From the NCBI GenBank assembly GCA_000091205.1, contig AP006484.2: 64,000 bases of DNA; one strand, 5' to 3'. The DNA is from Cyanidioschyzon merolae (lineage: Eukaryota). Shown piece after piece: positions 14,690 to 60,949 of the stretch (within the stretch, counting starts at the first letter, position 1; each line of letters opens with the position of its first letter). The notes under the pieces are model-generated. The model was given only the letters and a program-made list of their open reading frames with translations, was not told the DNA's origin and did not search any database. The position numbers were made by a program, and so were the translations under genes.

Positions 14690-15440
14690 AGAAAAAGGCT
14701 CGAGGCCAACGCTTTCCGACCTGTTCACAAGTTCGTGTCGAAAGCTCTCAGAGGATTTCACGATACGAAGTTATAGATTCCGTTCGAGACAACAATCCCT
14801 CTCTGTTTCCAGTCCTTGACGGATCTGTACTGAACAGCAGCAGCAGCAGCTCCATATCTGACACGCAAAATGCTTCCAGCAGCTGCCGTCCCTTCGGTGT
14901 TCATGAAAAATCGCTGCAGACACTAGTCATTGGCACGATCGTTTCCAGTGGATTGCATGGCAGAGCTTTCTGTAAAGTGGGCGTGGATGGATCGAATTTT
15001 CTCGACTTGCTCTCCATCTTGGGTTTTTTTCGAGAGCCTGTTTCAAGCCGGATCAATACCGCGTTCCATAAACCCTCTATAGAATAGAACAGCATGCGTT
15101 TAGGCGTGCAGCGGATAGCATTCTTGCCGGGATATCGCCCAGGAGATGCCCGTGATCCTACTGGACAAAACCAGACCGGTAAAGGGAAGCTTGCATCGTG
15201 CGAAGCCTTCTGTACCCGTCAAGGGTATGCATCAAGCGATGAGGCAAGCGTTCACTTGCCACAGAGCCGATTGTGGACGTAGACATACGGGAACACCTGA
15301 TCATATTCAAACGCGATCACTGCGACGAGTCCACCGAGGCAGGACACAAAACTGATGAGCATGGGAAACGAAAGGAGAATCGCAACTTTTGCTCGAGCAT
15401 GACCAGCGTGAAAAGCATCCAGAAGCGCAGCAATTGGGAC
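14690..15440 (-). repeat. dispersed ~750-bp repeat family, copy B (same orientation as copy A)
   Basis: ttctgtacccgtcaagggtatgcatcaagcgatgaggcaagcgttcac aligns with the rc of copy C 44250-44300. gacgagtccaccgaggcag..tcgcaactttt aligns with the rc of the copy C start. cgacctgttcacaagttcgtg matches the rc of catgagcttgtgaacaagtc. Track ORFs 15094..15282, 15146..15355 and 15273..15482 are frame-overlapping artefacts of this nucleotide conservation. Confidence 0.5.
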
Positions 15441-18129: not shown

Positions 18130-18544
18130 AAAGCGCTAGCGTCTTCGTCAACGATCCTCATACAGCTGTTGAGATAAGGTGTCTCTGCAGCAACAATCAA
18201 TGAAAACGTGTGTCGTTATACTAAGCGATTCCGTTCACGACCAGGTGAATCGATGAGGCCTAGGGCGGCGTTTCTGCGACACGATCAGAAATCCCGCAAC
18301 AGCAACTGCTAAAGTGCGTTCGTATCGTTCGGGGTACTTTCGTGTAAACGCATCTTTTACACGGAAACGTATCGGGATTTTCGTTCCAAGGTACTAAATG
18401 AATGGTCTACAGCATAGATAAAAACCTAAAAATGGAAAGTCGATCAAGCACCGAAGGAAATCTGCAAGGCGATCGCTCCTAAATGCCTGTACCGGTCTAG
18501 TGGATACACCAGCTGCACCCTTGCAAACATCCCGCAGATGCTCG

Positions 18545-20266
18545 CTAGTCCGTGGGGTTGGCGTCTTCGGTAGCGTCGGCTGCTCCTGTGGCGGTGCCGC
18601 TGCCCTCTCGCTTACGAACAGCGCTCAGAATGTCGTCAATACGCAGAAGCATGCACGCAGACTCCACTGCGGTCTTAAGTGCTTGCGCTTTCACAGCGTA
18701 GGCGTCCACAATACCCGCTTCAATCATGTCGATGAGCTCGCCACTTGTACCGTCTACGCCAATGTTCGAGTGGCCGGCTTCTGCGTGCTCTGCGCGAAGC
18801 CGCGTAAGGAGCCGGACCACAGAGGTGCCGCAGTTCTCGGCAAGCGTTCGAGGGATCACCTCAAGTGCCTCAGCTGCCTGTCGATAAGGCCACTGCGCAG
18901 CGCCTTCGACGAGCGCAGAGCGCTGCAGCAGAGCCCGGCTGAGCGCCATCTCGGTGGCACCACCACCGGCAACGACGCGACGGTCACCATAGAGGCTGCG
19001 TAGGACGCACAGTGCATCGTGCAGGTTGCGCTCGAGCTCATTCAGCGTGTCTTTACTGCCGCCCCGCAGCAGAACGGTGCACGCGCCTGGTGCTGTGCAC
19101 TGCTCAATGAAACTGTAGTACTCCTCGCCGAGGCGTCGAACCTCGAAGAGGCCCGCTCCCGTCCCGATATCCTGTTGGCTGGCCTCCTCGATACGCGACA
19201 CGATACGCGCACCGGTTGCTCGCACGAGCCGCTCGTTGTCGGTCTTTCGCACACGTCTGAGGGCGCTAATGCCCGCCCGCATCAGCAGGTAAGCGGCCAA
19301 GTCGCTGATACCCTTCTCGGTGATAACCAAGTCGGGGCGCAGTGCCGCGATGCGCTCGCACTGCTGGCGTACAACGGCCTCCTCGGACTGCAGGAGCGCC
19401 TCCCAGTCGGCCTCGCGTGTCACCTCAACGGTGAGCTGGGACTCGCCCTTGCGGTACTCCAGCGGGCAGTCCAGGAGAAGCAGGCGCGGATTCTCAATGC
19501 GTCGCCGCATCTGCGGATGCACAATGTCCTTGTTGAGGACGACACCGCGGATGACCGCGGAATCATCGAGGTCGCCACCGGGGATCTTCTCGACTCGGAC
19601 CAGGTTCTTGATATCGAGCGGACGCTGGGTGCCGGCTCCTGCGGTGGTAGCAGGCGCGCTGCTTTCTGCAATGAGCTTCACCGCTGCGAGTGACCAGGCG
19701 GCAACGCGCTCACGGTAGACAGCAGCCACCTTGGTGCCGAGGCAGGCACGCAAGACGCGCTGCAGCTGCACCTCATCGTTCCAGTCCACTGCAATTGCAC
19801 ACCGCTGCTCCAGCTCTGAGAGCGCATCCTGGAGCGCCCGCATGTACGCTCCAACGATGACACTAGGATGGACGCCCGCCTCTAGGCACGGCTCCGCGGC
19901 CTGGAGAAGCGCCCCCGCCAGCACAATGACGCTGGTCGTTCCGTCACCGACTTCCTCGTCCTGAGTGCGCGACAGCTCCAGCATCGCCTTGGCCGCCGGG
20001 TGCCCCACATCGATCTCTCGCAGGATCGCGTTCCCGTCTGAAGTGATGACCACACCTCCGATAGCGTCGAGGATGAGCTTGAGCATCGCTCGCGGCCCCA
20101 GCGTCGTCCGCACCACGTCCGCTACCGCTTTAGCCGCTGCAATGTTCGCAAGCTGGGTGTCGCGACCCCGCTTGTGCTGCGACTTGGTGTTCACAACATA
20201 CACTGGTGTTGCGTTTTTCAGCATGAGAAGTGTCGCAATCCTTGCAGCCTCCGCTTCGAAGGGCAC
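18545..20266 (-). CDS. CCT3: T-complex protein 1 subunit gamma (CCT3 chaperonin subunit); ATG at 20224 is an equally plausible start
   Basis: Colinear match along the full length to CCT gamma: NAILREIDVGHPAAKAMLELSRTQDEEVGDGTTSVIVLAGALL, RVEKIPGG, VVLNKDIVHPQMRRRIENPR, VITEKGISDLAAYLLMRAGISALRRVRKTDNERLVRATGARIVSR, CTVLLRGGSKDTLNELERNLHDA, WPYRQAAEALEVIPRTLAENCG, LLRIDDI. Alignment of TPVYVVNTKSQ with the human RPVLVLSQNTK favours the MLKNA start at 20224. Confidence 0.9.
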   Translation of the reverse strand: MPFEAEAARIATLLMLKNATPVYVVNTKSQHKRGRDTQLANIAAAKAVADVVRTTLGPRAMLKLILDAIGGVVITSDGNAILREIDVGHPAAKAMLELSRTQDEEVGDGTTSVIVLAGALLQAAEPCLEAGVHPSVIVGAYMRALQDALSELEQRCAIAVDWNDEVQLQRVLRACLGTKVAAVYRERVAAWSLAAVKLIAESSAPATTAGAGTQRPLDIKNLVRVEKIPGGDLDDSAVIRGVVLNKDIVHPQMRRRIENPRLLLLDCPLEYRKGESQLTVEVTREADWEALLQSEEAVVRQQCERIAALRPDLVITEKGISDLAAYLLMRAGISALRRVRKTDNERLVRATGARIVSRIEEASQQDIGTGAGLFEVRRLGEEYYSFIEQCTAPGACTVLLRGGSKDTLNELERNLHDALCVLRSLYGDRRVVAGGGATEMALSRALLQRSALVEGAAQWPYRQAAEALEVIPRTLAENCGTSVVRLLTRLRAEHAEAGHSNIGVDGTSGELIDMIEAGIVDAYAVKAQALKTAVESACMLLRIDDILSAVRKREGSGTATGAADATEDANPTD

Positions 20267-22062
20267 AGCGTTGCCAGCACGTCTCCTCAGAGAGGCGCAC
20301 TGTGGATTCCATCGATCGATACGGAGCTTTCCGGGGCGATCCGTCTACGGGGCAGCGCCTCGACGAGCTACGAACTAGGGAGGCAATGCCCGCTACTATT
20401 TGTGTCGTTTGCAGCTTGCTATCTATCTCGTGAGGAGACCGGGTTTGGGGTTAGCCGAACGTAGAGGTATCTGGAGAGCAACGGTGGTCTTTTGCCTGGT
20501 TATAAGCAGGAATTGTGCGCACAGGGGGGTTCTGGTTAGAATTATCCGTTTTATAGGGTTTAAAAACGCTTGCTGCGGGAGACCTAGCCGTAGCAGAAGC
20601 TGCGTCGGTAGCGTAGACGACTGTAGCAGCGGCTGCTGCAGTCTTGCATGGGGTAAGGCTGGTAATACAGACGACGACAACGGCTGTGACAGTCGCAAGC
20701 ACGTGTCGAGCAGAGCCTAGCGAAAGTGAGCGCCTCGGCTTGTACAGACGTCCACCAGGGACGCGACAGTCGTCTAGTGAGTCGAATCTTCGATCAAACC
20801 GACTGAGTTTGAGGGCAGGCCTACGTATCTGTGAGAAGGAAGCAGGGCCGCTCGGCGCCTTATATACTGTGCGAATCCAGCGCGGCCTTTGTTTTCAAAC
20901 AAAGGTACCCCTGAGTGGTACCCAGTTGTGTGTGCGCTGAAACGCCCTCGACAGCAGCGTCCACCACGAGAACGTCGGGGGTGTGCAGTTTGCGAAGGAG
21001 TGCAGGCCTGTCTGCGACGAACTGAGGTCGTTTCCGGGCAGCTACAGGCCGGTCTTGCTGCCAAGCGTTGGCTGCATCAACTCGGAGGACTCCGCCTCAG
21101 TATTGGACGCTGGGCGCAGAATAACCATAAGGTGGAGTTTTCGGACGAGTGTCGCAGTGGCAACGGAGGCTCCAGCGCCTCTCAGAACAAATCGAGGTCG
21201 CGACAGGCCCACAGCGTCCTCGTTGCTCGTCTACGTCGCACGAGACCCGACCAATTGAGTAGTTCTGGTTCCACGGAGGGAATTACACTGCGGAGCTGCT
21301 GGCCACGCGACCCCGCATCACATCTCCTGAACACTGACGGCAGGGCGCTGGCTCTTGTCGTTTGTTTGGCTCCAGAGTTCCGCAGCAAGTATAGAGCTCG
21401 CACTAGGAAATAAGCGGGTACTGCGCTGGTACCCTGACATCTTGGACTGTACAGAAGAGCGCAGTGTGGAGCTGCGTTTCCGACTTGCGTACTGGACCGA
21501 CGCAACGCCCCCGAGTGTGTGCCTGCGATCCCATGCACAGGGTGTTATCCTTGTGTTCGTTTGTTTCTGCCGCGCTAGACGTGACTTGTTTGCATATCGA
21601 CCCATAACTGAGCCCACTACGCGGAACGCCGCCAGACGCAAAATTATCTGCGCCAAGACTGCATTTTCCCCACGTCTTCGCAGCCGCTTGCAGGAACGAG
21701 CACGTCAACCGTCGCGAACGAAGCATCTTTACCTGGACGCATCGCGGACGGAGTGCGCTGGACTGCACGCGCTCACAGCCTCTAGACTGCAAACCTGACG
21801 GATCAGAGGCGCTGCGCCACTCCAGCGCTTCCGAGGCGGCAGGGGTCAGCTCCCGGTGAATACAGGCCAGTAGCTACGATTAAGGTACCCACGCATCTAC
21901 ATAGCAAGCGAGGAAGGGAGACTTCCGAGCAGTTAAGAATTGAGATTAGGCAAGCGTAGATTTCGTGAAACCCCATCACTGCACCAAGGCGGGCATCCAG
22001 ACGATCAGACAGGTACGCATTGACACCAGACACGTGTAGGCAGGGCGCTGCGGGCGCACCCA
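20267..22062. promoter_or_regulatory. 1.8-kb GC-rich divergent intergenic region between CCT3 (minus) and the JmjC gene (plus); presumed bidirectional promoter and 5' UTRs, with an unannotated ncRNA not excluded
   Basis: Sits between divergent ATGs at 20266/20224 and 22063. It holds only Arg-rich short ORFs of 174 aa or less with no protein-like composition. Confidence 0.2.
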
Positions 22063-24267
22063 ATGATGGCGGAGCGTTCACCAATCATCGACGCCATCGA
22101 GGATGCGCAGCGGCCGCTTGTGACCTCCGATTCCGAGATGCGTGCTCGTGACGTGTCAGCGCACGCATGCAGACAGCACGGACACGTGCTGCGGCATACG
22201 ATGCAACGTGTCCCTGCTCGTGTTGAGCTTCCCGAAATGCCGATAGGTGCGAACGACGCATTTACAGCTGCTGAAATATATATAACACCATCATCCATAT
22301 CCGAAAGCGTACCAAGTTCGTGCACATCCTGCGCGACAGCGTCAGCGTGCGACGCAGAGACGCGAAGGCTCGCCGCTATCGCGAAAAGAGGGCGCGCTAC
22401 AAGCCCCTGCGGTGAGCGCTCTTCACAGATGCTCCCGGCGGGTAGAATGCCAGCGAGTAGTGCGGCACCAGCAGCGCCCGAGACGCTCGACTCGATGCCA
22501 TCGTATCCACCCGATCCCGGTCCCGATCCACGGAGCGCTGCGAATAGCATTGGTGCTTCCACCAATGTCGCATCTCACAGCGAGCACAGCGCTTGCGGGT
22601 GCTTGGCTACAGATCAGGACACGAAACCTGAAAACCAGCGCACCACCAGTACGCGGTTCTGCATATGTCGCCAGCCGTACGACGCGCGCCGCAACGGCAT
22701 CATGGTAGCGTGCGACAACCCGACCTGCGCGTACGGCTGGTTCCACATCTCTTGTCTATTTCTGGACGTTTCACGTGTGCGGGCATCTAAGACCTTTATT
22801 TGTCGGTTCTGCTCCGGGACAGGGACGGACCTATTCACTCCAGTGCAGCGACCGAAACGCCCGCGGAGCCAGCATGGACGTCCGGCCGTCACCGATTACG
22901 CCCGCCTCCATGAGGGCGATATAGGCGGTGCCCTGCGGGGCGGCACCTGCGCCGGCGCTCTGAGCGAGGCGGCACGAGCGGCCGCTGAACGCCGGGCTCA
23001 GAGCTGGGCGAAGAACGCCACCAGCGACGCTGGCGGGCTAGCGGCGCATCTGGGGATACTCGTCTACGGCACCGGTGGCGAATTGCAGCGCATGCCCGAT
23101 GCGCCCTGTGTCGTGCTCGATCCCGACGGGCTCGACATGCACATTCCACATCGTGCTTACCATCCCGAGGAGGTCGGGCGCGAGTACGGACTTGAGCGTC
23201 ATTGCGAAGTGCTGGATGTCGCGAGCCAGAGTGAGCTGCATCCCCGCTGGAGCCTGGGGCAGTACCTGGATTACCTGGCAACCGCGCCAGCGTTACGTCA
23301 GCGGGTGCTGAACCTCATCTCCTTGGAGATATCACGAACACCGACAGGGCGAGCGTTCGTGGTGCCGGCGCTGATTCGCCGAGCGGACTGGGCGTCGCTG
23401 TATCCGGAGCCGCGCCCGCATGTTGATAAGTACTACCTTCTGAGCGGCACTGGATCGTGGACCTCGTGGCATATAGACTTTGGCGGATCGACGGTGTTCT
23501 ATCACGTGCTGCGCGGGAAGAAGCGCTTCTACATGTCACCGCCTACAGAGCGCCATCTGCAGCTCTACGAGCGGTGGCAGCGGGATCCGCAACAGGCGCT
23601 GCGTGAGCTAGACTTTGTTGAGGAGCTGAGCCCTATTGCCGTCATTGACCTCGACGCGGGAAACACGTTGTTCATTCCGGCGGGATGGCTGCATGCTGTG
23701 TACACCCCAGCGGACAGCGTTGTGCTGGGAGGCAACATTCTCCACCTGGGCGGCGTTGTCATGCAGCACCGCGTGTTCCAGATGGAGAACCGTCTACGCG
23801 TCTTACCCAAGTACCAGTTCCCGCTGTTTCGAGAGCTTCACTGGCTAGCGCTCCGACAGTATGCCCTTGCACTGCGAGAGGCGCGCACTCCCGGAGCGGT
23901 TTTCCAGACGAGTGCTGTGCACAGCGAACGCCAGCACCTGCGCTGGCTAGTGAAGCACTTGCGAGATCAGTTACATAACGCCTTGACCAGCGCGCCCGCT
24001 GAGTCTCCGAACCCAACCGAACTGCATACGCTGTTGCGGGACCGCATCGGGCTCCCCAGGAGGGTCCAGCTCGCGGACGTGCAGCGCTGGCTGGGCGTTT
24101 TGGAGGAGGCACTGGATACGGCCCACGAGCACGCACCCGAGTCGACAAAGGCCGAACGGAAGCGGACAAGGCGGTTTGAGAAACAACTCCGCCCGAGTCC
24201 CAGCGCTGACGCACTGGACGCGGCGCCCTGTCGCTCGACTCGGATTCGTTCAGAAAAGCGCGTCTGA
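22063..24267 (+). CDS. PHD-finger plus JmjC-domain histone lysine demethylase (PHF8/KDM7/JHDM1-like), 734 aa
   Basis: PHD C4HC3 finger: FCICRQPY..MVACDNPTCAYGWFHISCL..FICRFCS. JmjC catalytic core: YYLLSGTGSWTSWHIDFGGSTVFYHVLRGKKRFYMSPP (HxD) ... LFIPAGWLHAVYTP (second His). The Fe(II)-ligand triad is intact. Confidence 0.8.
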   Translation: MMAERSPIIDAIEDAQRPLVTSDSEMRARDVSAHACRQHGHVLRHTMQRVPARVELPEMPIGANDAFTAAEIYITPSSISESVPSSCTSCATASACDAETRRLAAIAKRGRATSPCGERSSQMLPAGRMPASSAAPAAPETLDSMPSYPPDPGPDPRSAANSIGASTNVASHSEHSACGCLATDQDTKPENQRTTSTRFCICRQPYDARRNGIMVACDNPTCAYGWFHISCLFLDVSRVRASKTFICRFCSGTGTDLFTPVQRPKRPRSQHGRPAVTDYARLHEGDIGGALRGGTCAGALSEAARAAAERRAQSWAKNATSDAGGLAAHLGILVYGTGGELQRMPDAPCVVLDPDGLDMHIPHRAYHPEEVGREYGLERHCEVLDVASQSELHPRWSLGQYLDYLATAPALRQRVLNLISLEISRTPTGRAFVVPALIRRADWASLYPEPRPHVDKYYLLSGTGSWTSWHIDFGGSTVFYHVLRGKKRFYMSPPTERHLQLYERWQRDPQQALRELDFVEELSPIAVIDLDAGNTLFIPAGWLHAVYTPADSVVLGGNILHLGGVVMQHRVFQMENRLRVLPKYQFPLFRELHWLALRQYALALREARTPGAVFQTSAVHSERQHLRWLVKHLRDQLHNALTSAPAESPNPTELHTLLRDRIGLPRRVQLADVQRWLGVLEEALDTAHEHAPESTKAERKRTRRFEKQLRPSPSADALDAAPCRSTRIRSEKRV

Positions 24268-24535
24268 GCATGTATGAACGTTGCATATACGTGAAAGAGA
24301 CAAATTGTTGGACGGGTGTGCCTGTGACCGCGAGGCAGGCCTTTGCGAGCAAAAAGCGAATAAAGGATAGCGTCGAATAGGCTGCGGAAGCAACGCGGCC
24401 GTATCGCGAACATGCTTCACGGTATCGCAGTCATGGAATGCACAGCATACAATCTACGCAGCGGCGTACCACGGATCAAAGATCGAATTCTCACTCAACT
24501 TGTCCCACGCATGCGGTTCTTATTCACCAATGCCA

Positions 24536-25994
24536 AAAAATGGAACTTGTGAAGGTCACCATTAGCCAAGTACAACCGTTCCCACTTTCTATAGACGAAA
24601 TTCCAGCCTCACTGGATACCTGATCGCAGCATACCAGTCCCGTGATTCGGACGGGAATCCAATGCCTTCTCTCCCGGCAATTGACTTTCGCATCGCATGT
24701 CGCTAGCCTTCCAGCGCACTGCCTGCACACACGGAGTACTGAACGGCTCTTTTCGATACTCGCTCAACACAGCGACGCTGGACGCTCCGCAGGCACAAGA
24801 CGTTTCCCGATGCTGATCGAGGCGCTCGAGTCCGCTGCATCGCGTGCTTGCGTGCTTTGTTCTTGCCGGTGGATTCACAGCCAGGCAAGCCGCTCGCCTT
24901 CGATCGTCTCGCCATGTGATGATCAACCAGCGTACCGAGCGCCAGCTCGTGTATCTGGCTCTGTTTCTGCACGCTTCCTCTTCACGTGTAGTTGCGAGCC
25001 CCAGTGCCTGTGATGCGTGTACGCCGTCCAGAACGCTTCGCTGGGAATCACACAGAATCGCTTCCTGTTCTCGATAAAGTGCCCAGGGCGTCGAGACCGA
25101 TCCCGAAGGCGTCCTTCCACCTGTCGCGATGCCTGCTGGCGTCCACCAAGCCCGACGCCAGACGAGACCGAGTAATGGCGACGCTGAGCCGCCCCATCAT
25201 GTCTCCGCTCAGGTCTCTGGCTTCGTCCTGTCCCACTGCTTGGCCGCTCTTGTGTTCGGGGCATCGACGCTGTCGATGAGCAGTGCAGAAGCGTATGAGA
25301 TGAAGAAGCCGCATCGTTTGCCCGACGGAGGATGGTGTTTCATACAATTCTATCGACTTGGCGATTTGTAGGCGACCGCACGCGTGACCTGTCGCGGGGT
25401 CCGCTGTTGTCGCTGGTCATGTTCGATTCTTCTTCACGAGCCGCAGTCTTGGCAGGCATCGGGTACCCTTGTACAGTTCTGCAATGCAGTCCGAACGAGG
25501 TCTCATCGCGTGAGACAAGGGCTCGTCGCTCCTGCTACAAGCTGTTGCGTTTCAGTACGAAGTGAGTCATGTTTTGTTCGGCGCGCGACACGCTCGCCCA
25601 GAAGCACGTTTTTCCGTTGGCCACTCACATCCCTTTATCACAGCTCGTATAAACGGTACGGAAACACGAGACCCTTTGGAGGCTTTGGTAGCATTTGGCA
25701 GCGTATGTGTGGAGTAGAATGGACTGAGGGGACCGACGTCGTGCAAGCAGAGTCTGATACTTTCTTTTTCGGATACATGACGTTCTGAACGAGGACTAGG
25801 AAGAGAATAGCCTATGCACCTGCCGACAGCAGAGTGAGTGACTTGACGAGACCGCGGTCCGTTTTTCGCGAGCGATCAGTAAAAGTATCGAGTCTTTTTG
25901 CAACCTTTCTCCTTGTTACAAGACGTATTCGTTTTATTGAAAGCTTTCGATGAAAATCGAACGAAAACAAGAGCGGTTTGCCGGTACTAGTGTT
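24536..25994 (+). repeat. left arm of a large inverted repeat (about 1459 bp)
   Basis: It is the reverse complement of 28314-29772. Boundaries were found by direct comparison: aaaaatggaacttgtgaaggtcacc at the outer end, and ccggtactagtgtt at the inner end against aacactagtaccgg. Track ORF translations on the two arms are identical or near-identical: 25384..25788 equals 28520..28924, and 25332..25565 equals 28743..28976. Confidence 0.85.
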
Positions 25995-28313
25995 ACCTAA
26001 ATACTGTTCTGGATAAGACAATAGCGCCACAGTGGATCCACGGGGAGACTCATCAATCGTGAACCATGGTAAGCAAAAGGCGTCCACAATGTTTGTGCCA
26101 GAGATGTTCTTCCATGGCCAGCGCATTTATCGACATTGCAGCGAACGCCTCGAAGAGGCTCGACATGCAGCTTTTCCCTGAATGCAGCGATCCTTCAATC
26201 CTGATGGGAAGCATGGTTCACGCTCATCAGTTGGAAAGGCCTCCCTAGCGACGCGATCGTCGTTGTCCCAACCACTGGCGGTAGCCGCGCACGCCATGCG
26301 GTGGAACGCACAGAGACTCAATGGATTGATGCCATGAAAAATAACTACAGCAAACCCACTAAGGCGTTCAGTCGAGATACTATAAGTTTTGTATTGAGAA
26401 GATCAAACGTGTACATAACCATGAATGTAAAACCGAATAATGTTGTGTACTGTCTTGGATCCGAGCGAGACCAATCGATTCGCGGAAACGCCGCCAAACA
26501 GAATAAGAGCGTCAGCCAAGCCCAGCTCCGTGCTCGAGTCAGGAGCGCGAGCGCTCCGAAAAACGTCGCCAACAGGCTATAGACTGCAGGCGGCGGCGCT
26601 ACAGTGTGTTCGCGTCGAAATATAACTAGTTCGCTTGGTCTTCTGGGGTCGTCTCTACTCGGCATTCTGTGAAAACAAAAAGTTGCTTTGCTGAGGCACT
26701 GGGAGGAATGCACGCTCAGAGACGCTCACACGCAGAACGGGCCTCAGTGGAAATCGTCTTGTTTCGTGCACGGTGTACAAAAGCCTACCAGCGTCTCCCT
26801 GAAGCGCAAAAGCTGCCGGCTCTGAGGGTATAAAACGTCACGGTTTCCGCGGACGCGTCCCCGTTGCACTGCCTGCAGAGCGACATCCGACCGCACTCCT
26901 GCGGATACGAATGCGCGCGCGCTAGCGCCTGTCCACCGCGTGCTCTGGATGGGAAACGGTGTTCAGTGAGCGAGCGATCGCTGACGTCCGTAGATCGTTT
27001 TTCCTCATAGGTGCGGGATCAATGCATTTAGACCGATTCCCTGCGGATTTTCAATTGATGGGGGCCAGCACGGAAGGTACCTTCTTTCTTGTGCAGGCAC
27101 TCCGAGATTCCATGGACCCGGACCTCTCTTCCAGTCGCTGAAGGGGTTTCGCGTGATCCAGCGACTCAGCGGGTGAAGAGCCTTCATGAAGCGCTTGATG
27201 CAACTCCAAGTGTGCCATGACGGCTACTCTTGCCGTAAGCAAACAAAAATATTTTATGGTGATCATGCAGTGTCGGTTAGAGGCGTCGCAGCTTCTGCAC
27301 AAGTGCAGCATTGCCGAAAAAGCGCTGCTCCCGGAAGAAACCTTTATCACTGCGCTAGTGAATTCATTATTCGGACGAGCGCAGGTGACCTACAGATGAC
27401 CACGTAATACACATCTGAGACTTTATATCGGCATCGGGTTAGAAGAAACCGTTGTATTTCGTTGCATCAGGTATTGGGGCACCTCCAGAGTGCAATGCAC
27501 TGCTTCATGCGGGTGCGATTACGGAGGACGGCGCTCCTCTACACAATAAGCCCGCATTTGCTTATCAGAGAAAGTGCTGGATGATGCCCAGGACTGGCAA
27601 AGCTATGCCATCAAATACGGAACGAGGGTTTATGCTACATTTCTAACTTTCCCATTTGGGCAAGCCTGCATGCAGACCGATAGTGCAAGCGCCCGAAATT
27701 TCTGCGTTGATAGCCGGTACTTGCTTTCGATCCCATTCTATGCATAGAAGCCCTGAACCGCACTCTTTGGGTTTGGCATTCGCTAGAGTGGAGTTCTTGA
27801 TGAGATTCTATCAATAGACCTGCTCCAGCGGTAGTGGACTGGACGAATATACAGAATAGAATGAATCGTGGCACCCTAATAGCGAAGCATGACAGGGTAT
27901 TTTTTCCTCCGTTTTGCTTCGAATCAGCAAAGAAGCATATTCCCAGCTGTCTGAGGTATATTTCAGAGACGGTATTCTGCCGTGCTCACGTGGACACATC
28001 TTCTACAATGGAGAACGCACAGTGATCACCGATTCGGACCTGTCGATAGCTGTTTCACTGGACCACAACAGATCAAATGGCAATTCACAAATATGCTTTG
28101 GCATCAAAATAATTATCAGTGCATGCTTTCCGCCCGAATGGACGGCCTCGCATCAGAACTTCGGCCGGAAGATGGTGCTTGATGTTGTTCGCATTAATGG
28201 GAGCATTGCTGGCCCTAGTATGCATTCGCAAAAGGAACCTTGCCTGGTAGCTGTACTTAAGTCACGCATGCGACGGTCAGTTTGCAGCTGGGACTCAGAA
28301 AAGTGATTGCAGG

Positions 28314-29772
28314 AACACTAGTACCGGCAAACCGCTCTTGTTTTCGTTCGATTTTCATCGAAAGCTTTCAATAAAACGAATACGTCTTGTAACAAGGAGA
28401 AAGGTTGCAAAAAGACTCGATACTTTTACTGATCGCTCGCGAAAAACGGACCGCGGTCTCGTCAAGTCACTCACTCTGCTGTCGGCAGGTGCATAGGCTA
28501 TTCTCTTCCTAGTCCTCGTTCAGAACGTCATGTATCCGAAAAAGAAAGTATCCGACTCTGCTTGCACGACGTCGGTCCCCTCAGTCCATTCTACTCCACA
28601 CATACGCTGCCAAATGCTACCAAAGCCTCCAAAGGGTCTCGTGTTTCCGTACCGTTTATACGAGCTGTGATAAAGGGATGTGAGTGGCCAACGGAAAAAC
28701 GTGCTTCTGGGCGAGCGTGTCGCGCGCCGAACAAAACATGACTCACTTCGTACTGAAACGCAACAGCTTGTAGCAGGAGCGACGAGCCCTTGTCTCACGC
28801 GATGAGACCTCGTTCGGACTGCATTGCAGAACTGTACAAGGGTACCCGATGCCTGCCAAGACTGCGGCTCGTGAAGAAGAATCGAACATGACCAGCGACA
28901 ACAGCGGACCCCGCGACAGGTCACGCGTGCGGTCGCCTACAAATCGCCAAGTCGATAGAATTGTATGAAACACCATCCTCCGTCGGGCAAACGATGCGGC
29001 TTCTTCATCTCATACGCTTCTGCACTGCTCATCGACAGCGTCGATGCCCCGAACACAAGAGCGGCCAAGCAACGGGACAGGACGAAGCCAGAGACCTGAG
29101 CGGAGACCTGATGGGGCGGCTCGGCGTCGCCATTGCTCGGTCTCGTCTGGCGTCGGGCTTGGTGGACGCCAGCAGGCATCACGACAGGTGGAAGGACGCC
29201 TTCGGGATCGGTCTCGACGCCCTGGGCACTTTATCGAGAACAGGAACCGATTCTGTGTGATTCCCAGCGAAGCGTTCTGGACGGCGTACACGCATCACAC
29301 GCACTGGGGCTCGCAACTACACGTGAAGAGGAAGCGTGCAGAAACAGAGCCAGATACACGAGCTGGCGCTCGGTACGCTGGTTGATCATCACATGGCGAG
29401 ACGATCGAAGGCGAGCGGCTTGCCTTGCTGTGAATCCACCGGCAAGAACAAAGCACGCAAGCACGCGATGCAGCGGACTCGAGCGCCTCGATCAGCATCG
29501 GGAAACGTCTTGTGCCTGCGGAGCGTCCAGCGTCGCTGTGTTGAGCGAGTATCGAAAAGAGCCGTTCAGTACTCCGTGTGTGCAGGCAGTGCGCTGGAAG
29601 GCTAGCGACATGCGATGCGAAAGTCAATTGCCAGGAGAGAAGGCATTGGATTCCCGTCCGAATCACGGGACTGGTATGCTGCGATCAGGTATCCAGTGAG
29701 GCTGGAATTTCGTCTATAGAAAGTGGGAACGGTTGTACTTGGCTAATGGTGACCTTCACAAGTTCCATTTTT
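28314..29772 (-). repeat. right arm of the large inverted repeat (about 1459 bp), ending 44 bp upstream of the NUS1 ATG
   Basis: See left arm. A few substitutions are visible in the paired translations, for example PPHHVSAQVSGFVLSHC against PPHQVSAQVSGFVLSRC, so identity is high but not perfect. The outer edge degrades over a further ~20 bp. Confidence 0.85.
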
Positions 29773-29815
29773 CGGGACTCGTGAGATTATCCGCCAAAAG
29801 GGACTGCTGCCGCCG

Positions 29816-30637
29816 ATGCGATGCGCTCTCGAGCCATGCACGTCAGCGAAGCGCGCGTTCCCTAGGCCCCACATTGCATCCGGGGTTTCTTTCTCTAAAC
29901 GCTTTGTCAAGGACATAAACCTCTCCGTTTATCTGTCTGGGCTCGACATACGAAGGAGATTTCGTCACCATTTGAAGCAAGAGACTGAAGCGCTATCGAG
30001 GTCGCCTCGGCGCATGCACTTCCAGGGCGCTCCGGCAGGGTCGGGGTCTCCGACCCGCTCAATGGTTTCACTGCCCAGGGTGTTTTCTTCTAGTAGAGAC
30101 CACGCTCAAGGTGTATTGTTTTGGATCTTTATTTTACTGATTGCCACTTTGGAGCGCTTGCGGTGCCTCGGTCGAGATCTTCGCCGACGCTGGCGAACCG
30201 CGCCGCTCAAGCACACGCAACTGCAATCGTTTCCGTCGCACGTCGCACTCCTCGGTAACGAAGCAGCGCTTGCGTCGATCACGAAACACCTAATAGGACG
30301 CGGTGTTCAGAGAGTTACTGTGTTTGATCCGGGCAAAAGGGAGCAGCGAGGGCGCCTTGGCAGGGCAAGCACTCCAGCGAGGCTTGTTCTGGGCCCTGCA
30401 GACGCCACACGTCGCCGTATTGTGGCCATGACGGTAGACCAGCGCGAGCGCATCAGCGATAACAGAGCCTTCTACGATGAACCAGACTTGCTACTCACCT
30501 TGGATGGGCATCTTCACGGGTATCCGGCCACGGCGCTGCGCGTTACGCACCTCCACCGGCTTGCGAATCCGAGTTTATGGGCGGTAGATGAGGCGCTTCG
30601 TCTCTACTTGACAACTGAACGTCGCCAAGGTCGATGA
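29816..30637 (+). CDS. NUS1: NUS1 / Nogo-B receptor-like subunit of dehydrodolichyl diphosphate synthase (cis-prenyltransferase); true start may be an internal ATG
   Basis: C-terminal LHGYPATALRVTHLHRLANPSLWAVDEALRLYLTTERRQGR matches the NgBR/Nus1 C-terminus pattern L.GY.PW.IRLTE...LP......A..EAL..Y...E.R.G. There is an N-terminal hydrophobic segment VLFWIFILLIATL. Single ORF. Confidence 0.6.
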   Translation: MRCALEPCTSAKRAFPRPHIASGVSFSKRFVKDINLSVYLSGLDIRRRFRHHLKQETEALSRSPRRMHFQGAPAGSGSPTRSMVSLPRVFSSSRDHAQGVLFWIFILLIATLERLRCLGRDLRRRWRTAPLKHTQLQSFPSHVALLGNEAALASITKHLIGRGVQRVTVFDPGKREQRGRLGRASTPARLVLGPADATRRRIVAMTVDQRERISDNRAFYDEPDLLLTLDGHLHGYPATALRVTHLHRLANPSLWAVDEALRLYLTTERRQGR

Positions 30638-31642
30638 GAGGGCACCTGACTCGATCGCCAGCGCATCGTGCTGCCCGCAAGGTACCTGGCTATGCACTGC
30701 AAAGTATGAAACAACGTTTACTCAGCTTGGGGCTTCAGTGTCGTGTCACGAAGATTTTCACGATGAGCTTGCACGGATCACGAAAAAAGGGCGAACAATG
30801 CGCAATCACTGCGCCGAATTCTGGAATCCCTCGACCATGAACAAGGGCGACCTCCAGGCCCACCTATCAATGCAAAAGCTACAGGTCACCTGTCGTGCTC
30901 TGAATTCATATACAAGCGAGAAGCATTCTACGTGCGAGGGCATCAGCGCCCTAAGTATTCTTTAGCTATTGCTTGAATACAGAGGTCGCCGGGGAGCGCG
31001 CTAGCGAGGTCGCTGGACATCGCCATGCGGTGCAAGCCTCCTTCTACAATACGAATTCGATGCAGCTTCGCACACTCTGATGGAAGTGCACATGCTGCCG
31101 GAGATCGCACCTTCAACCTTACCTCTTCTGCGAACGCAACCATGTTTTATAAATCCGGGAGAAGCGTCCCTGAAAACAACGGAGGCTTGATCAATGCATC
31201 GACGCAGCGAACGTCGCACGGAGACAGGACGGTATGACGCCAAGGCCTCCAAAGACGTGAGCTACGGGGAACGCACGACGCTGTTCGGGACAGCGCTCGT
31301 TGTGCTGGTCTGTGCTCCGACATGCTGCGCACACAGAATACCCATCCCGCATTCTAGATTCCACGTACAACGTAAACGTGTTGTCATCGGAAACAGAGCG
31401 CCGAATCGCCGCGTGGCGATCGCCCCGCCGCTACGCGTCCACTGGTGCGCGTCCAGGTGTGCCGTACGCTGGTCGGCACCTAACGTGACGACTGCTTGGG
31501 TGTCCGTCACGGACGACGTGGAGCAGGCGTTTCAGACGGGGATTCGAGAACTTGTCGCGAATTGCGAGCGATCAAGCGAAATACTGCTTCAGGGTGCCGG
31601 TAATACTGGGAACATCGTTACCAGGCGTGACCTGAGCGAATT

Positions 31643-33673: not shown

Positions 33674-33781
33674 CGGTGAGGACGAGATTCGAACTCGCGC
33701 GCTCAAAGAGCATGTACTTAGCAGGCACACCCGTTAACCATGGCGGTACTTCTGATACAGAAGTATCTCCGGCACCTCACC
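33674..33781 (-). other. tRNA-like or Pol III B-box-like element (GCGAG TTCGAAT CTCGT T-arm) bracketed by GGTGAGG/CCTCACC and containing a perfect 8-bp hairpin; not a canonical tRNA
   Basis: The minus strand reads GGTGAGG..TACTTCTGtatCAGAAGTA..GCGAGTTCGAATCTCGTCCTCACCG. The T-stem and 7-nt TTCGAAT loop are canonical and the acceptor 3' strand pairs with the 5' GGTGAGG. But the length is 108 nt and I could not fold a D-arm or anticodon arm. Confidence 0.15.
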
Positions 33782-33889
33782 GTTAAGTCCTGGGGACCTG
33801 TGCGCAAAACCATATATATACACCCAGATCGCGCGCGATTGGCATCGGCATGATGCGCGTCGCCGGTGGTGATGCTAAGCGCTGCCGGC

Positions 33890-44069: not shown

Positions 44070-44830
44070 TTGTCGACGCATTAGATGCACAGGCGTAAGT
44101 TGCGACCTATGCTCTGCCTGCTATTTTCATCTTATTTGTATGCATCCTCGGTGCCGTCGTCTCAACACTGACACCTGACAGCGGTCAGGTACTCTCAAGC
44201 ACCTATGGATCTGCGCCCTCCGAACGCTGCACTATGGTGCGTGAACGCCTCCTTTATCGCTCGATGCACGCCCTTGACGGGTACAGAAAGCTCTGCATCG
44301 ATGCCGTCCTCGGTTTCCGCGCCCGATGCAGTACCGTATGCTACCAGGCTTGTTCTGCTCGATACGCTCGGAGAGTACTCCGTATGTTGCACGTGCAAGC
44401 GCGCGCTGTTCCATTCCATGGAGGATCTGTGGAAGGCGACAAATCTATGACGAAATAAAGCATCAGAAGAAAAATCGAGGCTGGAGTCTATGTCGAGAAA
44501 TCGCGATCCGTGTACATGCCGCACTCGTAAAGCGATACCGCACTCTCCGCTGGATGCGGTCCGCGCGATGACTCATGCCAAAGTCCAAGAATCGTTTCGA
44601 TGCGAACCGAAAGGACGAGAGCCCGCAGTACCTTATATTATGAGAAGGATCGCGGTACTGTGGAATCCAGTCTTGTCGATGTTCACAAAGATAGGGAAAT
44701 CTGTCTTCGGAATGAAATCTATTATTTGACGCGACAAGTCCTGGGAACTCTCAGCATGAGCTTGTGAACAAGTCTTCGAAAGACAACGCGGTGCACGATC
44801 ACTCGTCAATCCAGCTGTGCGCATTGCTGT
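44070..44830 (+). repeat. dispersed ~750-bp repeat family, copy C
   Basis: Starts gttgtcgacgcattagatgcacagg. Internal cttgacgggtacagaaagctctgcatcgatgcc..gtttccgcgcccgatgcagtaccg. gtcgagaaatcgcgatcc. Ends catgagcttgtgaacaagtcttcgaaagacaacgcggtgcacgatcactcgtcaatccagctgtgcgc. Colinear with copy D at roughly 70-80% identity. Confidence 0.55.
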
Positions 44831-55454: not shown

Positions 55455-58400
55455 TTCCGCTCGTTTGCACGCTCAGGAGCACTAGCCCGAGCCTAAACCG
55501 ATGCTAGAATTGCGCACAATCTGGAAGCAAGCCGCGGATTGCGTGCTGCGGGCGTGCAGGGCGCATGTGGCTGCGCGTGCGCGTTGAAGCGCCTGAATTC
55601 CCCGTACTGCTCTCGTGTAGGCCTGGTGCAAAGGTCGTTAGAGGAGTCCCGGGGCACGTGCCTGGTGACCGGAAAGTGAACCCTTTCTCTGCCGCATTTT
55701 CAGCGAGAAGGGTTATAATTAGAGCGGTGAATTCTCGAGTGCAAGTAGTAGCACACCCTTTTCGTACATGTTTGTATATCTCCCATGTATTCAACAAAAG
55801 GAACACAGCATATAGATTGGAGAAAGGCCGTCTAGAGCTTCATTGAAATCACTGATAGCTTTCAAAGAAAGAGCGTTCCTCATCCAACCTGGCTATTCTA
55901 GGAGCGGCTGGGGATGAGCTGTCCTTCAAGTAGTTTCTATCCTGAAGTCCGTTCAATCAACATGGAACTTATCAACCGCTTTGTACGCGACTGTTCACTC
56001 GAGAATCCGATCCATTTCATGCCTTCTCGGAGAAATGCGTCCGAGGACACCACAGTATATGAAGTTTTCATGTCATGAATGTAAACGTTGACGATGAGAC
56101 TCGGATGCACAAAGGCACTCTTCCAGGCGAAAGCGGCGCGCGTTGAATAACGCACGATCGATTCCGTACTGAAATGCGAACGTTGGTGACAGCATGGAGT
56201 GATGGTCATCGCGCTTGATGAGACTTCATTCGGCCGAGACGGTAGGCCTGTATACTACTTTTCAAAATGGCGCAGATTGCTCTTCCCAAGGAGTTTACAG
56301 GCGAGCATGCCGACAACATCAGCTCCGGCTGCGGTGTCATCGCGTGGTCCGCCAGTAATCGACACACAGACAGGACCTTTCAACAGCTCATCCCTCATCG
56401 AAGCGAGTTTCATGGCTTCTCTCTCCGGAATTCTTCTCTCCTGGTGCCAGACAACGCCGCTTTCCAGCAACGCAAATGCTGTGGAGGAGTACCCAATGTA
56501 GACTGGCGTTGAGCTGCTCCTTGTAACAGCCTATTCTCTCTGGTTGAAATGATCCCGCGTCTTTTCTGATGCCATATGCCATTTTGATGCCCAAGCATCA
56601 AAATACAAGCAGCTAGTGACCAGGACAAGATTTATCGATATAACGTTGTCTACCTTTACGAGAACGAAACTGGGTCGTTCCTCCTCTGCTTGTGCTCCGG
56701 TGCAAACGGGAAGACGCGCTACAGTCAGTAGACATGCTCGCAACGAAAGTGACGAAAAGGCACTGGAGGGTGAGTAAATTCATATGTGCACTGGAAAAAG
56801 AGAGCTCCTTTACCGCCGTCCATCCATTCCGTCTAAATCCCGAGATGCAAACCAGATAAAGAACATCGTGAACACATCCATGCACTCCGCCAAGCAACAG
56901 GGAAAAAGAACCCATCACGTAGCGAAAAGAAAGATCTTCCAGAATAGAGCACGAAAAGAAAAGGAAGGAGAAATTAACGAAGTGGGAAGATCAGCCTGTA
57001 ACCATTGTCGAATCCTCACACTGAAACACATCAACGGTCAGAATCATCCAAAGAGTAACATACAGGACGCTTTCATAGAAAATGCAGCTTCATGTTCGAG
57101 CATATTTCGTCTCGCTGTTTCCGCTTTGACGTACCATGTCAAGAAACTGTTTGTGCGTGTTCCATGCAACGGGCTGGCAACTGTCCACCTCAGCCTGGAA
57201 TCGTTGGATCTACCCGTCGCGTGATACCGCGAATGCTACTCGGGACAGAGGACACATGGCGGTATGACCGTTCGATCAGAGGTTTGGAAGCAAGCTCCCT
57301 TGGACCTCGATGATGCGTCGCTGCGCCACCTGGTCCATCAAAACTTTTACAGTGAAGGATTCAAAAAAACTGTCAAACCAAGCTCAAAAGCCATATCCAG
57401 GATGATGTCGAACGCTTCTCGAGGCGCAGCCTTTGGGCTTTGTATAAATTGTACCCTCTCGTTACTGTTCCAGAAAAGTAGGGACAGATAGAAAGGATTC
57501 TTTGGCATGTCGACGGAGGCAAATGACGAGTTGGTTGCTGTTGAACTTGAGTTCGTGGAGAGGACGGGCGAATGCCGCTACAGGCGCGAGAGTCGCTCAA
57601 GTCATGCTAGCTCATCGCATGTCGACCGCCTCCGGACCGATCGATGTCTTTACTAAAAGACAGTTGGAGCATAAGCGCTGCCTTGCGTGCCTCTGGCGCA
57701 ACGACGTTTTCCTGAACACAGCGCTCCAGAGCAAAACAGATCCCTTCACCGAATCCGAGTGCCCGAGCCTCCTCGAGCGCCTTTCCGTTGTGACTACAAA
57801 TATCCCATCATGGCCAACTATATTACCGTAGGAGCTTCAGTACTGCATGGCCGTTTCCGTGATTTACGTCTAATCTGGGCGGGCAATCAGGAAACTTTCG
57901 AAAGACTTTGTAAAGAGGGCTAGCTGTGTGCGTCCGGGGTTCCTCGTATTCGGGGGAGAAGTGGAGCGCATTACACAGGAACCAGGGAACCCGACGACAC
58001 ATCATTGAGCATGAACTTCGTGAAACTTGCGCATGAATCAACAGATGAGGTTCATTTTCAGCAGTTCAAAGTACATGAAAAGAAAGAATTTTCTATGACC
58101 ATGGATCCCAGGTTGTCGAGCACCATGGCCGACGCCGTCCCTCTGAACCAAGAGGTGAGACGCGAAGACCCGAATGGGAACCAGGTGAAGCTGCTCAACT
58201 TTCCCAGGGCTTGGCATTATCGGGAATTGGGTATGGTGGACGCCCGGAAGCATGCCAACAACCGGAATGGCGTCGCGGTCCATCTGGACGCTGTGCGCGT
58301 CATATCGAGCTGAGCGCGGTGCTCTGTACGCTTCATTTAGGGCATACATGGGCGTCCAAATGGATGCTGCAGACGCTTTTTGGCGGGAGTCCTTGAGACC

Positions 58401-59791
58401 GCGCTTGAGGCACCAATTTTTTCGCATGTACGGAGGCGAGAAAGGTGCATCCGCGAACTTGTTCAATGACGTGGAGAAGGAAATGACCAATACGTCGTGA
58501 AGTTTTGTGGTAGTCTAAGGCACTTGACTCTCTGTAGAGCGCAACTGCCGCACTCCTACTCGCTTGGAAAGAGAGTGCGACGCCGACGGGAACCGATTCC
58601 GTACGACTCCCATCGAAGCAATTCGGACGACACACACACACACATCACGAGCACTGGTGCTCGCCGGAGCACATTGAAAAGAATAGGATGAAAAGGGTTG
58701 AAGACACGAAATGCTTTGCGGTAAGCTAAGCGAACGTCAGACGACAACGCAGTTCAAGATGAGAGGCTTCGTATGGTGCGATTTCACAAACAACAATGCG
58801 CCCAAGCATATCTGGTCAGATAACTGAACGTTTTTGTCAGAATACAGAAATTTGGCGGGCTTCCGGAGCGTCAAGCAGTTTCGAGTTGGGCGAAGTTTCC
58901 AGAGAATCGCTCAGTAACCAGTGTGAACATTTTGCTGACAAGTTGTAGATTTGCAATGACCCGTAACAATGGCGTGGCGAATGGACAGTGGGTTTTCGCC
59001 AAGAGCTGGGTACTGGGATTGCGTGGGTCAGCCATCCAGCAAATCTGGAGCACCGCGCATGTCCATCGGGATAGATTTAATCTTGTCATCTGGTAGAAGG
59101 TAATCGAGATCCGTGATTCGATGTTACTGAGTATGCATTGCTCCACGGTCACTCTGTGGCACACCGGAAAGGAGCTTGCCGGCGTCGACGAACTCTCAGA
59201 GGAAATGCAGTTCCAGTTGTCTTTCGACGAAATTTCATAATACATATGGCATTGTCTCGGCGATGGAGTCATTGAAACAAACACGTTCTACGAAAATGAA
59301 AGGCAAATAAACATACCCACTTATCGGCGTCTCTCCGGCTTATTTTTGACCAGCTGACTGCTATCGGCTTCAGTTTCTCCATGCACGCTGCGAGCACCAG
59401 AGCCTGTCCCACAAGGTTTGCTCGCATCAGGTCCCTAGGTCTCGTCTTGAGCAGCCCAGATCGTCTGATGTTGATGTCGGCGTTGGAGTCTGGGTTCACG
59501 CACTCCATGCGTTTCCTTGCGCTGGTTGAGCACAGCAATGGAAGGATTCATCGGACTCGCACCCCCTGCGCGAATACACTCTCATCATCGCCTCGTCGGG
59601 CAAACACCTTTACTCACCTGGCATCCCGCTTCTTAGTTTGTTTTGTCACTTGCTCTTCTTCGCTCGATCGTTGATGAGAAAACTATTCTTCGTTTTTTCC
59701 GGCAGCCGGCGATAGCGGCCCTACGGGATCCTCGGCTTCTATGTGCATACACTTCCTTGGAATTTCTATTTCTTCAAATGAATGCAGTTCA

Positions 59792-60642
59792 TTATGCCCT
59801 TAGATAAGGAACTTCCCGGAGGCAGAGGAACTTGTGGAAGAACGACGAAGTGTACCCTGGTGTCACCATGCTGAAACCTGCAGCGATTCGCCCAGTGCAG
59901 CGATCACCACGTTTTTCAATTGGAAACACTCCTTCGATGGGGTAGAGCAACGGGAAGTACCAAGAAGTGAAAACCTGCTCGTCCCCGATAGATTCGACGA
60001 AAGTTCGAATGCAAGGAGAATGGTGAAATGCCACCTTTTCGAATAGAAGAACGTCGCCAAACGTTAGGGAAAATCCTTCAACGATTCGGAAAAGAGGGTG
60101 CTACTGTATGCACCTTCTCTACGAGCGAAACTGAGGTCGCCAAATGAATCCACTGCAGCTAGAAGAGATCACGATATCCTCGTTCTCTTCGAGCTCGACC
60201 GTACACACAACGGGCTCCACATCCGCAGGTATCCATATATGCTCCGTTCGGTTCCTCCGAAGGAAGTCGCATCGACTGGAAAACCAAACCGACGTTCCTC
60301 TGCTTCATACCGATCGCTGACTTCAAGGAACGCTGTCGTTGCGATTTCTCTTGAAGATGGCCAAGCTTGAACTACGACTTTTTTGCGAATGTATCCCAGT
60401 GTTTTCAGGACAACACGGACAAGATGTTGAGAAAGAGAGAAGCCCGTGGCGTCTATCATCGTCACTTTTGCTTTCAGTAAAAAAATCAATGGGTCGTTTT
60501 CTAGCATCGACTGCAAGCAGTCTTTGAGAATATCGGTTCTCGACGCAGAGCGCTTCCACTTTCTATCGGTGTTCCTTAACCATCTGAGAAAGGTGGTATA
60601 ATTGACCTGAATGAGGAAGGCAGTCCTCCCTGCACTGTTCAA
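59792..60642 (-). mobile_element. degenerate Tc1/mariner- or IS630-like DDE transposase relic (frameshifted pseudogene) in an AT-rich gene-poor block
   Basis: Three minus-strand ORF pieces in different frames. 60169..60642 carries KVTMIDATGFSLSQ, which resembles the first catalytic-Asp block vfiDEsgf with E replaced by A. 59792..60034 carries WYFPLLYPIEGVF, which resembles the ..SPDLNPIE..W block with the catalytic Glu. 59863..60060 lies between them. No terminal inverted repeats were identified. Confidence 0.3.
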
Positions 60643-60949
60643 TAAAGAATATATATCATGCAGTCATTTCGACTCCGATACATGCGGTACAGTGCATAGT
60701 GGCTTCGATGGTCTGCTATACATTACGAAAAAGCATTCGATTACTCGCAGCGGCCGAGTCACAGTACTGAGTTGAGAGACTAATCCAGCAGGTATGCGGT
60801 GGAGGCTGCAGGCAAGTTGCTCGATTCACATCTATTTTCGCAAACCGTGACCAAAACAACGCCGGGAGCGCCAGCGTATGACCCAGCTAGCTTTACAAAA
60901 GTATCCGGCTGCACTCTGTTGGTGAACGCTATTCAGGAAACGTTTAACC

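Follow-up and report, generated by a model that had tools for sequence, protein, structure and literature searches.

A 99% identical inverted repeat flanks an unannotated Asterix gene, inverted relative to sister species, on chromosome 2 of Cyanidioschyzon merolae

Inverted repeats around unique segments

Long inverted repeats on either side of a unique segment are known from several settings. At human Xq28, 11-kb inverted repeats lie around FLNA-EMD and flank a recurrent inversion. For Drosophila inversions, the staggered-break model gives inverted duplications at the breakpoints. Plastid genomes and the yeast 2-micron plasmid undergo flip-flop isomerization through inverted repeats, and the centromeres of Schizosaccharomyces pombe, Komagataella phaffii, and Candida tropicalis are of the inverted-repeat type. 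Here we describe a palindrome on chromosome 2 of the alga Cyanidioschyzon merolae 10D (contig AP006484.2), within a stretch of 64,000 nucleotides that we call the window. It lies between CMB046C, which encodes a JmjC protein, and CMB047C, and the segment between its two arms carries a gene for Asterix, a subunit of the PAT complex. We consider it likely that the structure is an inverted segmental duplication flanking an inversion of the Asterix segment, that is, a recombination-prone arrangement of a known kind produced by an ordinary mechanism.

The C. merolae locus resembles the FLNA-EMD repeats in its opposed arms, which are ~99% alike, and in its short, gene-bearing unique segment, which differs in orientation between lineages; in both cases, gene conversion appears to keep the arms alike and no dedicated recombinase is involved. 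It differs from them in being much smaller (1.46-kb arms, a 2.3-kb segment, and one gene) and in belonging to a haploid, extremely repeat-poor algal genome, and the orientation polymorphism is only suggested in C. merolae. As in the Drosophila inversions, an inverted segment is bounded by an inverted duplication of what would formerly have been single-copy sequence, with no transposon at the breakpoint. Unlike what the Drosophila model gives, there is one duplicated block here rather than one per breakpoint, and the state of the arms before the inversion is not reconstructable because the intergenic DNA of the sister species is unalignable.

The likeness to plastid genomes and the 2-micron plasmid lies in inverted repeats that recombine, invert the unique segment between them, and evolve in concert, as the C. 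merolae arms may do. Those, however, are organelle genomes or plasmids present in many copies, one of which, the 2-micron plasmid, has a dedicated recombinase, whereas the C. merolae locus is single copy and nuclear and would depend on general homologous recombination. With the yeast inverted-repeat centromeres, the locus shares a unique core of a few kilobases between kilobase-scale inverted repeats; unlike theirs, its core has a constrained protein-coding gene, and the mapped centromere lies elsewhere by our best estimate.

The repeat and the gene between its arms

Compared base by base, the two arms differ at 11 of 1,459 positions and have no indels, an identity of 99.25%, which confirms the inverted repeat described in an earlier note made from the sequence alone. 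A repeat search returned the inverted pair 24524-25994 / 28314-29784 (1,471 nt, 99%, arms 2,319 nt apart), the sole long repeat of the window. In the base-by-base comparison, identity falls away sharply past both the outer and the inner edges, the outer extension of 12 nt matching at only 8 positions (coordinates are collected in Table 1). A second inverted pair, 15199-15267 / 44229-44297, with 69 nt, 78% complementarity, and arms 29 kb apart, is probably a chance match.

The left arm begins 268 bp past the JmjC stop codon (24267), as against about 270 bp in the earlier note, which had also placed the right arm 44 bp before an ATG. That distance holds for the longest open reading frame (ORF) of CMB047C, from 29816; the annotated start at 30014 is 242 bp away. 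The same note had seen ORF translations of 134 and 77 residues that are identical on both arms, and these are present. It had also set the structure in an AT-rich background, which the composition does not bear out: GC content is 54.9% for the window, 54.7% for the arms, and 51.1% for the spacer between them.

The arms look non-coding, in agreement with the first reading of them as lacking a protein-like ORF. The codon-usage scores of all seven arm ORFs (7/7) fell within the wrong-frame null range, in a test of modest discriminating power in which Asterix and CMB047C themselves stand barely above the null. None of the four arm ORFs scanned against Pfam gave a match. At the palindrome locus, Rfam returned nothing even at E <= 1, and ARAGORN found no tRNA gene. 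A scan of the locus for bacterial promoters and terminators gave about what shuffled sequence would, although this type of scan is not relevant to a eukaryote.

Evidence on the junctions comes from independent metagenome assemblies with 98 to 99.5% identity to the window, and all four palindrome junctions recur in them. In contig L017, the left arm is preceded by 79 nt of JmjC-side flank and followed by the spacer from 25995, so that both the left outer and the left inner junction are contained in it. L013 runs from the CMB047C flank through the right arm and into the spacer from 28313; the inner edge of this CMB047C-side arm is crossed in both L013 and L011. The right outer junction is present in L004, L011, L012, L013, and L021, two of which (L004 and L012) enter the arm from the right flank and end at its inner edge or 26 nt before it. 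Other contigs stop on the outer side of this arm, L020 and L022 to L025 at or near its outer edge and L028 and L029 160 nt inside it. Many contigs end exactly at arm edges, as they should at a true repeat, and the same boundaries in many samples mean that the reference is not misassembled, a possibility that the earlier note had raised. The repeat is therefore real and present in several C. merolae-like strains.

The spacer holds a conserved and constrained Asterix gene. The earlier note was correct that no ORF in the spacer exceeds 130 codons; it overlooked this shorter, real gene, which encodes 106 amino acids and is inverted relative to sister species. The spacer ORF scores 34.3 bits against Pfam PF03669 (PAT complex subunit Asterix), with a gathering threshold of 22.7, and in a tblastn search, the ASTER-family gene of a related cyanidiophyte (contig L003) places at 26659-26393 on the minus strand with E = 3e-14. 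Homologues among metagenome-derived proteins are 100, 70, and 73% identical, and an alignment of these with the L003 gene product has 27 invariant columns. Among 10D, L011, L013, L017, and L021, the coding sequence has 0 single-nucleotide polymorphisms (SNPs), versus ~25 in the 1.6 kb upstream.

An alternative start, the in-frame ATG at 26713, would give a 122-amino-acid Asterix, in 10D only. A 6-bp deletion in L011 and L017 eliminates this upstream ATG, and since it is deleted in two strains, the 106-amino-acid form is the likely product. Neither NCBI nor UniProt has a corresponding 10D protein; the gene is thus unannotated.

Comparison with sister species gives the Asterix segment its polarity. 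In L003, the order is JmjC, Asterix, CMB047C-like, and Mrt4, all on the plus strand, with gaps of 166 bp and 316 bp. In contigs L014 to L016, from another species with an Asterix that is 70% identical, Asterix, 247 bp, the CMB047C-like gene, and Mrt4 follow each other on the plus strand, and then come the window's downstream genes. Asterix is thus on the plus strand and co-oriented with its neighbors in both sister species and on the minus strand in 10D. At neither of these two loci is there an inverted repeat, and both lack sequence resembling the arms or the non-coding DNA of the spacer.

Because the sister species have a one-strand gene order and no repeat, the 10D Asterix segment is inverted relative to the ancestral state. 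Across these relatives, then, the repeat occurs in several C. merolae-like strains and in neither of the two sister species. On this comparison, the inverted duplication around Asterix arose within the C. merolae lineage. In a separate observation, the three independent 31-kb contigs L014 to L016 all start ~1.5 kb upstream of Asterix, and the shared start point suggests a repeat boundary in the sister species too.

Table 1. Features of the palindrome and its surroundings in the window (positions of the 64-kb stretch; a point in the strand column marks a feature without strand)
Feature	Position	Strand	Description
PAT-complex subunit Asterix gene	26345-26665	minus	106 aa; Pfam PF03669; absent from 10D proteome
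Left arm	24536-25994	.	1459 bp, 54.7% GC, non-coding; reverse complement of 28314-29772
Right arm	28314-29772	.	Ends 44 bp before first ATG of long CMB047C ORF, 242 bp before annotated start
Unique segment between arms (spacer)	25995-28313	.	2319 bp; inverted in 10D relative to sister species
Degenerate outer extension of repeat	24524-24535	.	8/12 positions match 29773-29784
CMB047C	30014-30637	plus	Hypothetical protein, 207 aa, exact match to BAM78867.1; longest ORF from 29816; conserved in L003 and L014
Segmental duplication, CCT chaperonin subunit and JmjC gene CMB046C	18487-24363	plus	5.9 kb; second copy elsewhere on chromosome 2
Unique linker, end of CCT and JmjC duplication to left arm	24364-24535	.	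172 bp

Probable gene conversion, orientation, and competing explanations

We propose the following course of events. In the ancestral state, Asterix stood between the JmjC and CMB047C-like genes, with all three on the same strand. In the C. merolae lineage, the Asterix segment would have been turned around, and ~1.46 kb of adjacent non-coding DNA would have been placed on both sides of it in opposite orientations. Staggered breaks or fold-back/template-switch repair may have been the origin of the inversion, and either would leave an inverted duplication at the breakpoint. Since then, the arms would have served as substrates for intrachromosomal homologous recombination, in which non-crossover exchange (gene conversion) would hold them ~99% alike and crossover exchange would flip the Asterix segment. 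Both an inverted segmental duplication and a recombination-prone palindrome had been among the candidate explanations in the earlier note, and both fit the evidence. Efficient homologous recombination is well established in C. merolae, where it is the basis of routine gene targeting.

The case for gene conversion rests on a comparison of distances. The left and right arms of 10D differ from each other at 11 of 1,459 positions, and from the arms of other strains at 14 to 29; in another lineage, the left arm of L017 and the right arm of L012 differ at 3 of 1,432. Divergence between strains amounts to 0.4 to 1.4% in the unique spacer and to ~0.5% in the right flank in most comparisons (1.2% for L013). 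The repeat is older than the split of these genomes, yet arms from one genome are closer to each other than arms from different genomes are, which points to gene conversion as what keeps them alike. In the Sanger-finished 10D reference alone, the outer 701 bp of the arms contain 10 of the 11 mismatches and the inner 758 bp contain 1 (binomial estimate, ~0.004), a clustering that fits a recent conversion tract beside the spacer.

Alternatively, the structure could be a static inverted duplication whose arms are alike from youth alone, with neither ongoing conversion nor flipping. An identity of 99.25% without indels is what such a duplication would have, and the flipped contigs described below may be assembler artefacts. 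The repeat with the same boundaries is found, however, in strains that differ from 10D by 1.0 to 2.0% in the arms and by up to 1.4% in the spacer, compared with 0.75% between the 10D arms themselves, and the strong clustering of mismatches in the outer arm halves also speaks against it; we hold a static duplication to be unlikely. The earlier note had offered recent origin or ongoing conversion as readings of the high identity. Conversion fits better than recent origin, because the repeat with the same boundaries also occurs in other strains, and the 10D arms are more distant from the arms of these strains than from one another.

Both orientations of the spacer are seen among the contigs. In L011 and L021, the CMB047C flank leads through the arm to the 25995 end of the spacer, an orientation that is reversed with respect to 10D and agrees with the ancestral one. 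The spacer of L013 and L017 is oriented as in 10D. The census of contigs is thus 2 versus 2, where the repeat exceeds short-read inserts and the samples are mixed strains (with N's at polymorphic sites). Such a split would be expected of a flipping segment and equally of an assembler that picks its path through the repeat arbitrarily. The contigs are thus suggestive only, and we regard it as likely that the Asterix segment can flip by general homologous recombination within the inverted segmental duplication.

One can envision that such flipping has a function. In an inversion switch, recombination between the arms would toggle the Asterix segment and so alter the expression of Asterix and/or CMB047C; the two orientations among the contigs would be expected of it, as would the position of the right arm next to the start region of CMB047C. 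Against this, the arms are nearly identical, so Asterix keeps the same neighboring sequence for 1.46 kb on each side, and the arm upstream of CMB047C is unchanged in both states. Moreover, no recombinase gene or site is evident, and the evolutionary rate of the arms is that of non-coding DNA. We therefore give a functional switch little chance. The same slim prospect attaches to a naturally flipping nuclear cassette, with both Asterix orientations kept in populations, perhaps even in clonal cultures, and with orientation affecting the expression of Asterix or CMB047C. If so, a eukaryote whose genome is among the simplest known would have a nuclear inversion switch that needs no recombinase. 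Given that a flip between alike arms preserves 1.46 kb of the surroundings of Asterix on each side, we take the structure to be, most likely, selectively neutral, with no dedicated function.

Several points weigh against the sequence of events proposed here for the inverted duplication. The arms have no detectable similarity to the sister-species loci, where the gap between Asterix and the CMB047C-like gene is only 247 to 316 bp. The inversion could be a second step, by recombination between pre-existing arms, instead of sharing a one-step origin with them. Short-read assemblies leave the arms unphased and can mix alleles, which makes part of the distance matrix weak evidence. Likewise, a short-read assembler may cross a 1.46-kb repeat either way at random, and the flipped contigs are weak evidence for that reason. 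We infer the mode of origin, gene conversion, and ongoing flipping; what we observe is the repeat itself, the Asterix gene, its inversion relative to two sister species, the lack of the repeat in those species, and the occurrence of the repeat in several C. merolae-like strains.

The lack of any counterpart of the arms in sister-species loci would also be expected if they were mobile. The earlier note had listed a long terminal-inverted-repeat (TIR) or foldback non-autonomous DNA transposon, a class that has long terminal inverted arms and needs no transposase; two inverted copies of a 1.46-kb element would be a variant. What lies between the arms, however, is only a single-copy gene, Asterix, at its ancestral position. 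Neither the unit as a whole nor either of its arms is flanked by a target-site duplication, and the outer flanks compared for this purpose, CAATGCCA running up to the left edge and CGGGACTC continuing from the right edge, have nothing in common. Neither a terminal inverted repeat inside an arm nor tandem subrepeats in the arms were present. There was no arm copy in another context in the 64-kb window, and among the metagenome matches listed, all contigs with an arm represent this locus. The one arm ORF that was searched fell into a single small cluster among 5.8 billion proteins. Transposable elements make up only 0.7% of the C. merolae genome. We rejected a transposon on the lack of target-site duplication, arm-terminal repeat, subrepeat, and other copies among the matches listed, and we regard it as highly improbable.

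The architecture of a 2.3-kb core between 1.46-kb inverted repeats also matches that of an inverted-repeat centromere, in which a central core and flanking inverted repeats recruit CENH3, and GC content is mildly lower at 25.5 to 28.7 kb. C. merolae centromeres are 2 to 3 kb long with ~48.4% GC, and no other pattern has been reported for them; that of chromosome 2 was placed at 212.6 to 213.5 kb by CENH3 chromatin immunoprecipitation with quantitative PCR (ChIP-qPCR) (Fujiwara 2013). The gene tags in the window (CMB046C to CMB048C at 22 to 32 kb, POLD2 [CMB052C] at 38 kb, and IDI [CMB062C] at 63 kb), taken with the average density of at least 125 protein genes per 457 kb, put the palindrome at an estimated ~160 to 170 kb on chromosome 2, so that the mapped centromere probably lies tens of kilobases to its right. 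In addition, the core contains a constrained protein-coding gene, and the spacer, at 51.1% GC, is not the GC minimum of the window, a region at 55.7 to 60.7 kb being lower and poorer in ORFs. On the gene-tag estimate, the core gene, and the spacer GC, we set the centromere aside as very unlikely.

Farther along the window, 55500-60900 is a 5.4-kb stretch without an ORF of at least 160 amino acids and with the lowest GC of the window at the 5-kb scale (~48 to 49.5%). It lies just left of the gene preceding IDI (CMB062C) and could plausibly hold the chromosome 2 centromere.

Finally, a hairpin-RNA locus had been proposed, at which small interfering RNAs (siRNAs) would be made from a transcript running across both arms. 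A read-through transcript would indeed fold into a 1.46-kb double-stranded stem. Dicer and Argonaute, however, have been lost in Cyanidiophyceae (PMC12770821, PMC9812998), which leaves no mechanism for a small-RNA hairpin locus, and the empty Rfam search of the locus also speaks against one. This explanation is scarcely credible.

Neighboring genes and the meaning of the locus

The genes on either side of the palindrome are those of the reference. The JmjC product is identical to BAM78866.1 and the Mrt4-like product to BAM78868.1; the JmjC gene is taken as CMB046C from the tag of its neighbor, CMB047C. The name NUS1 that the earlier note gave to CMB047C could not be confirmed, since neither the single sequence nor a three-species profile found a match in Pfam, NCBIfam, or the PDB sequences. 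AlphaFold2, run on the single sequence, gave a model of unusably low quality (pLDDT, 39.7). The protein ends in ERRQGR, with R, R, and G invariant across the three species. This end resembles the C-terminal RXG motif of NgBR/Nus1; the NUS1 label is unsupported by sequence or structure search.

To the left, the palindrome adjoins the duplication of the CCT chaperonin subunit and JmjC genes. The JmjC paralogue in the second copy, BAM78896.1, matches at 725 of 734 residues and is 30 accession numbers further on. Contig L010 matches 18487-24363 at 99.2% and diverges on either side. Together with L001, it represents copy B, whose 99% identity to the window ends at 24363, with unrelated sequence after that point; after copy B comes an ANTH-domain gene, an order also seen in Cyanidiococcus. 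With a 5.9-kb duplication adjoining the palindrome, this part of chromosome 2 has been through duplicative rearrangement more than once.

Two further observations concern the right-hand side. In L018:1-1740 (JGI 3300050366), with a breakpoint at window position 31489, a gene for a 532-amino-acid AAA/ClpB-like protein stands before the Mrt4-like gene in place of CMB047C; either the strain is rearranged or the contig is chimeric. Farther right, at ~33674-33783 on the minus strand, a block of ~65 nt is 100% identical in C. merolae, L003, and L014, between which coding DNA is only 65 to 75% identical. The block reads as a tRNA-Ser(GCU)-like gene with a ~30-nt insert in the D-loop and a TTTT tail, and ARAGORN and Rfam fail to detect it. 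Disrupted (ectopic-intron) tRNA genes are known in C. merolae, and the block is probably one of them.

No new biological principle emerges from this locus; the main practical yield is an unannotated gene and a warning that the locus may be heterogeneous. Asterix, a conserved membrane-protein biogenesis gene, was missed in the reference proteome of a genome described as fully finished because it is located in a seemingly empty 5.5-kb gap. C. merolae 10D serves as a model with a minimal, fully finished genome that is poor in repeats, and gene targeting in it relies on homologous recombination. Here, the 1.46-kb inverted repeat offers recombination a ready-made substrate; because of it, cultures may be heterogeneous at this locus, and both short-read assemblies and nearby targeting constructs can go astray. 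Together, the palindrome and the 5.9-kb duplication of the CCT and JmjC genes mark a small, rearrangement-prone stretch of chromosome 2, which could be a natural assay of inversion and gene-conversion rates in a haploid alga.

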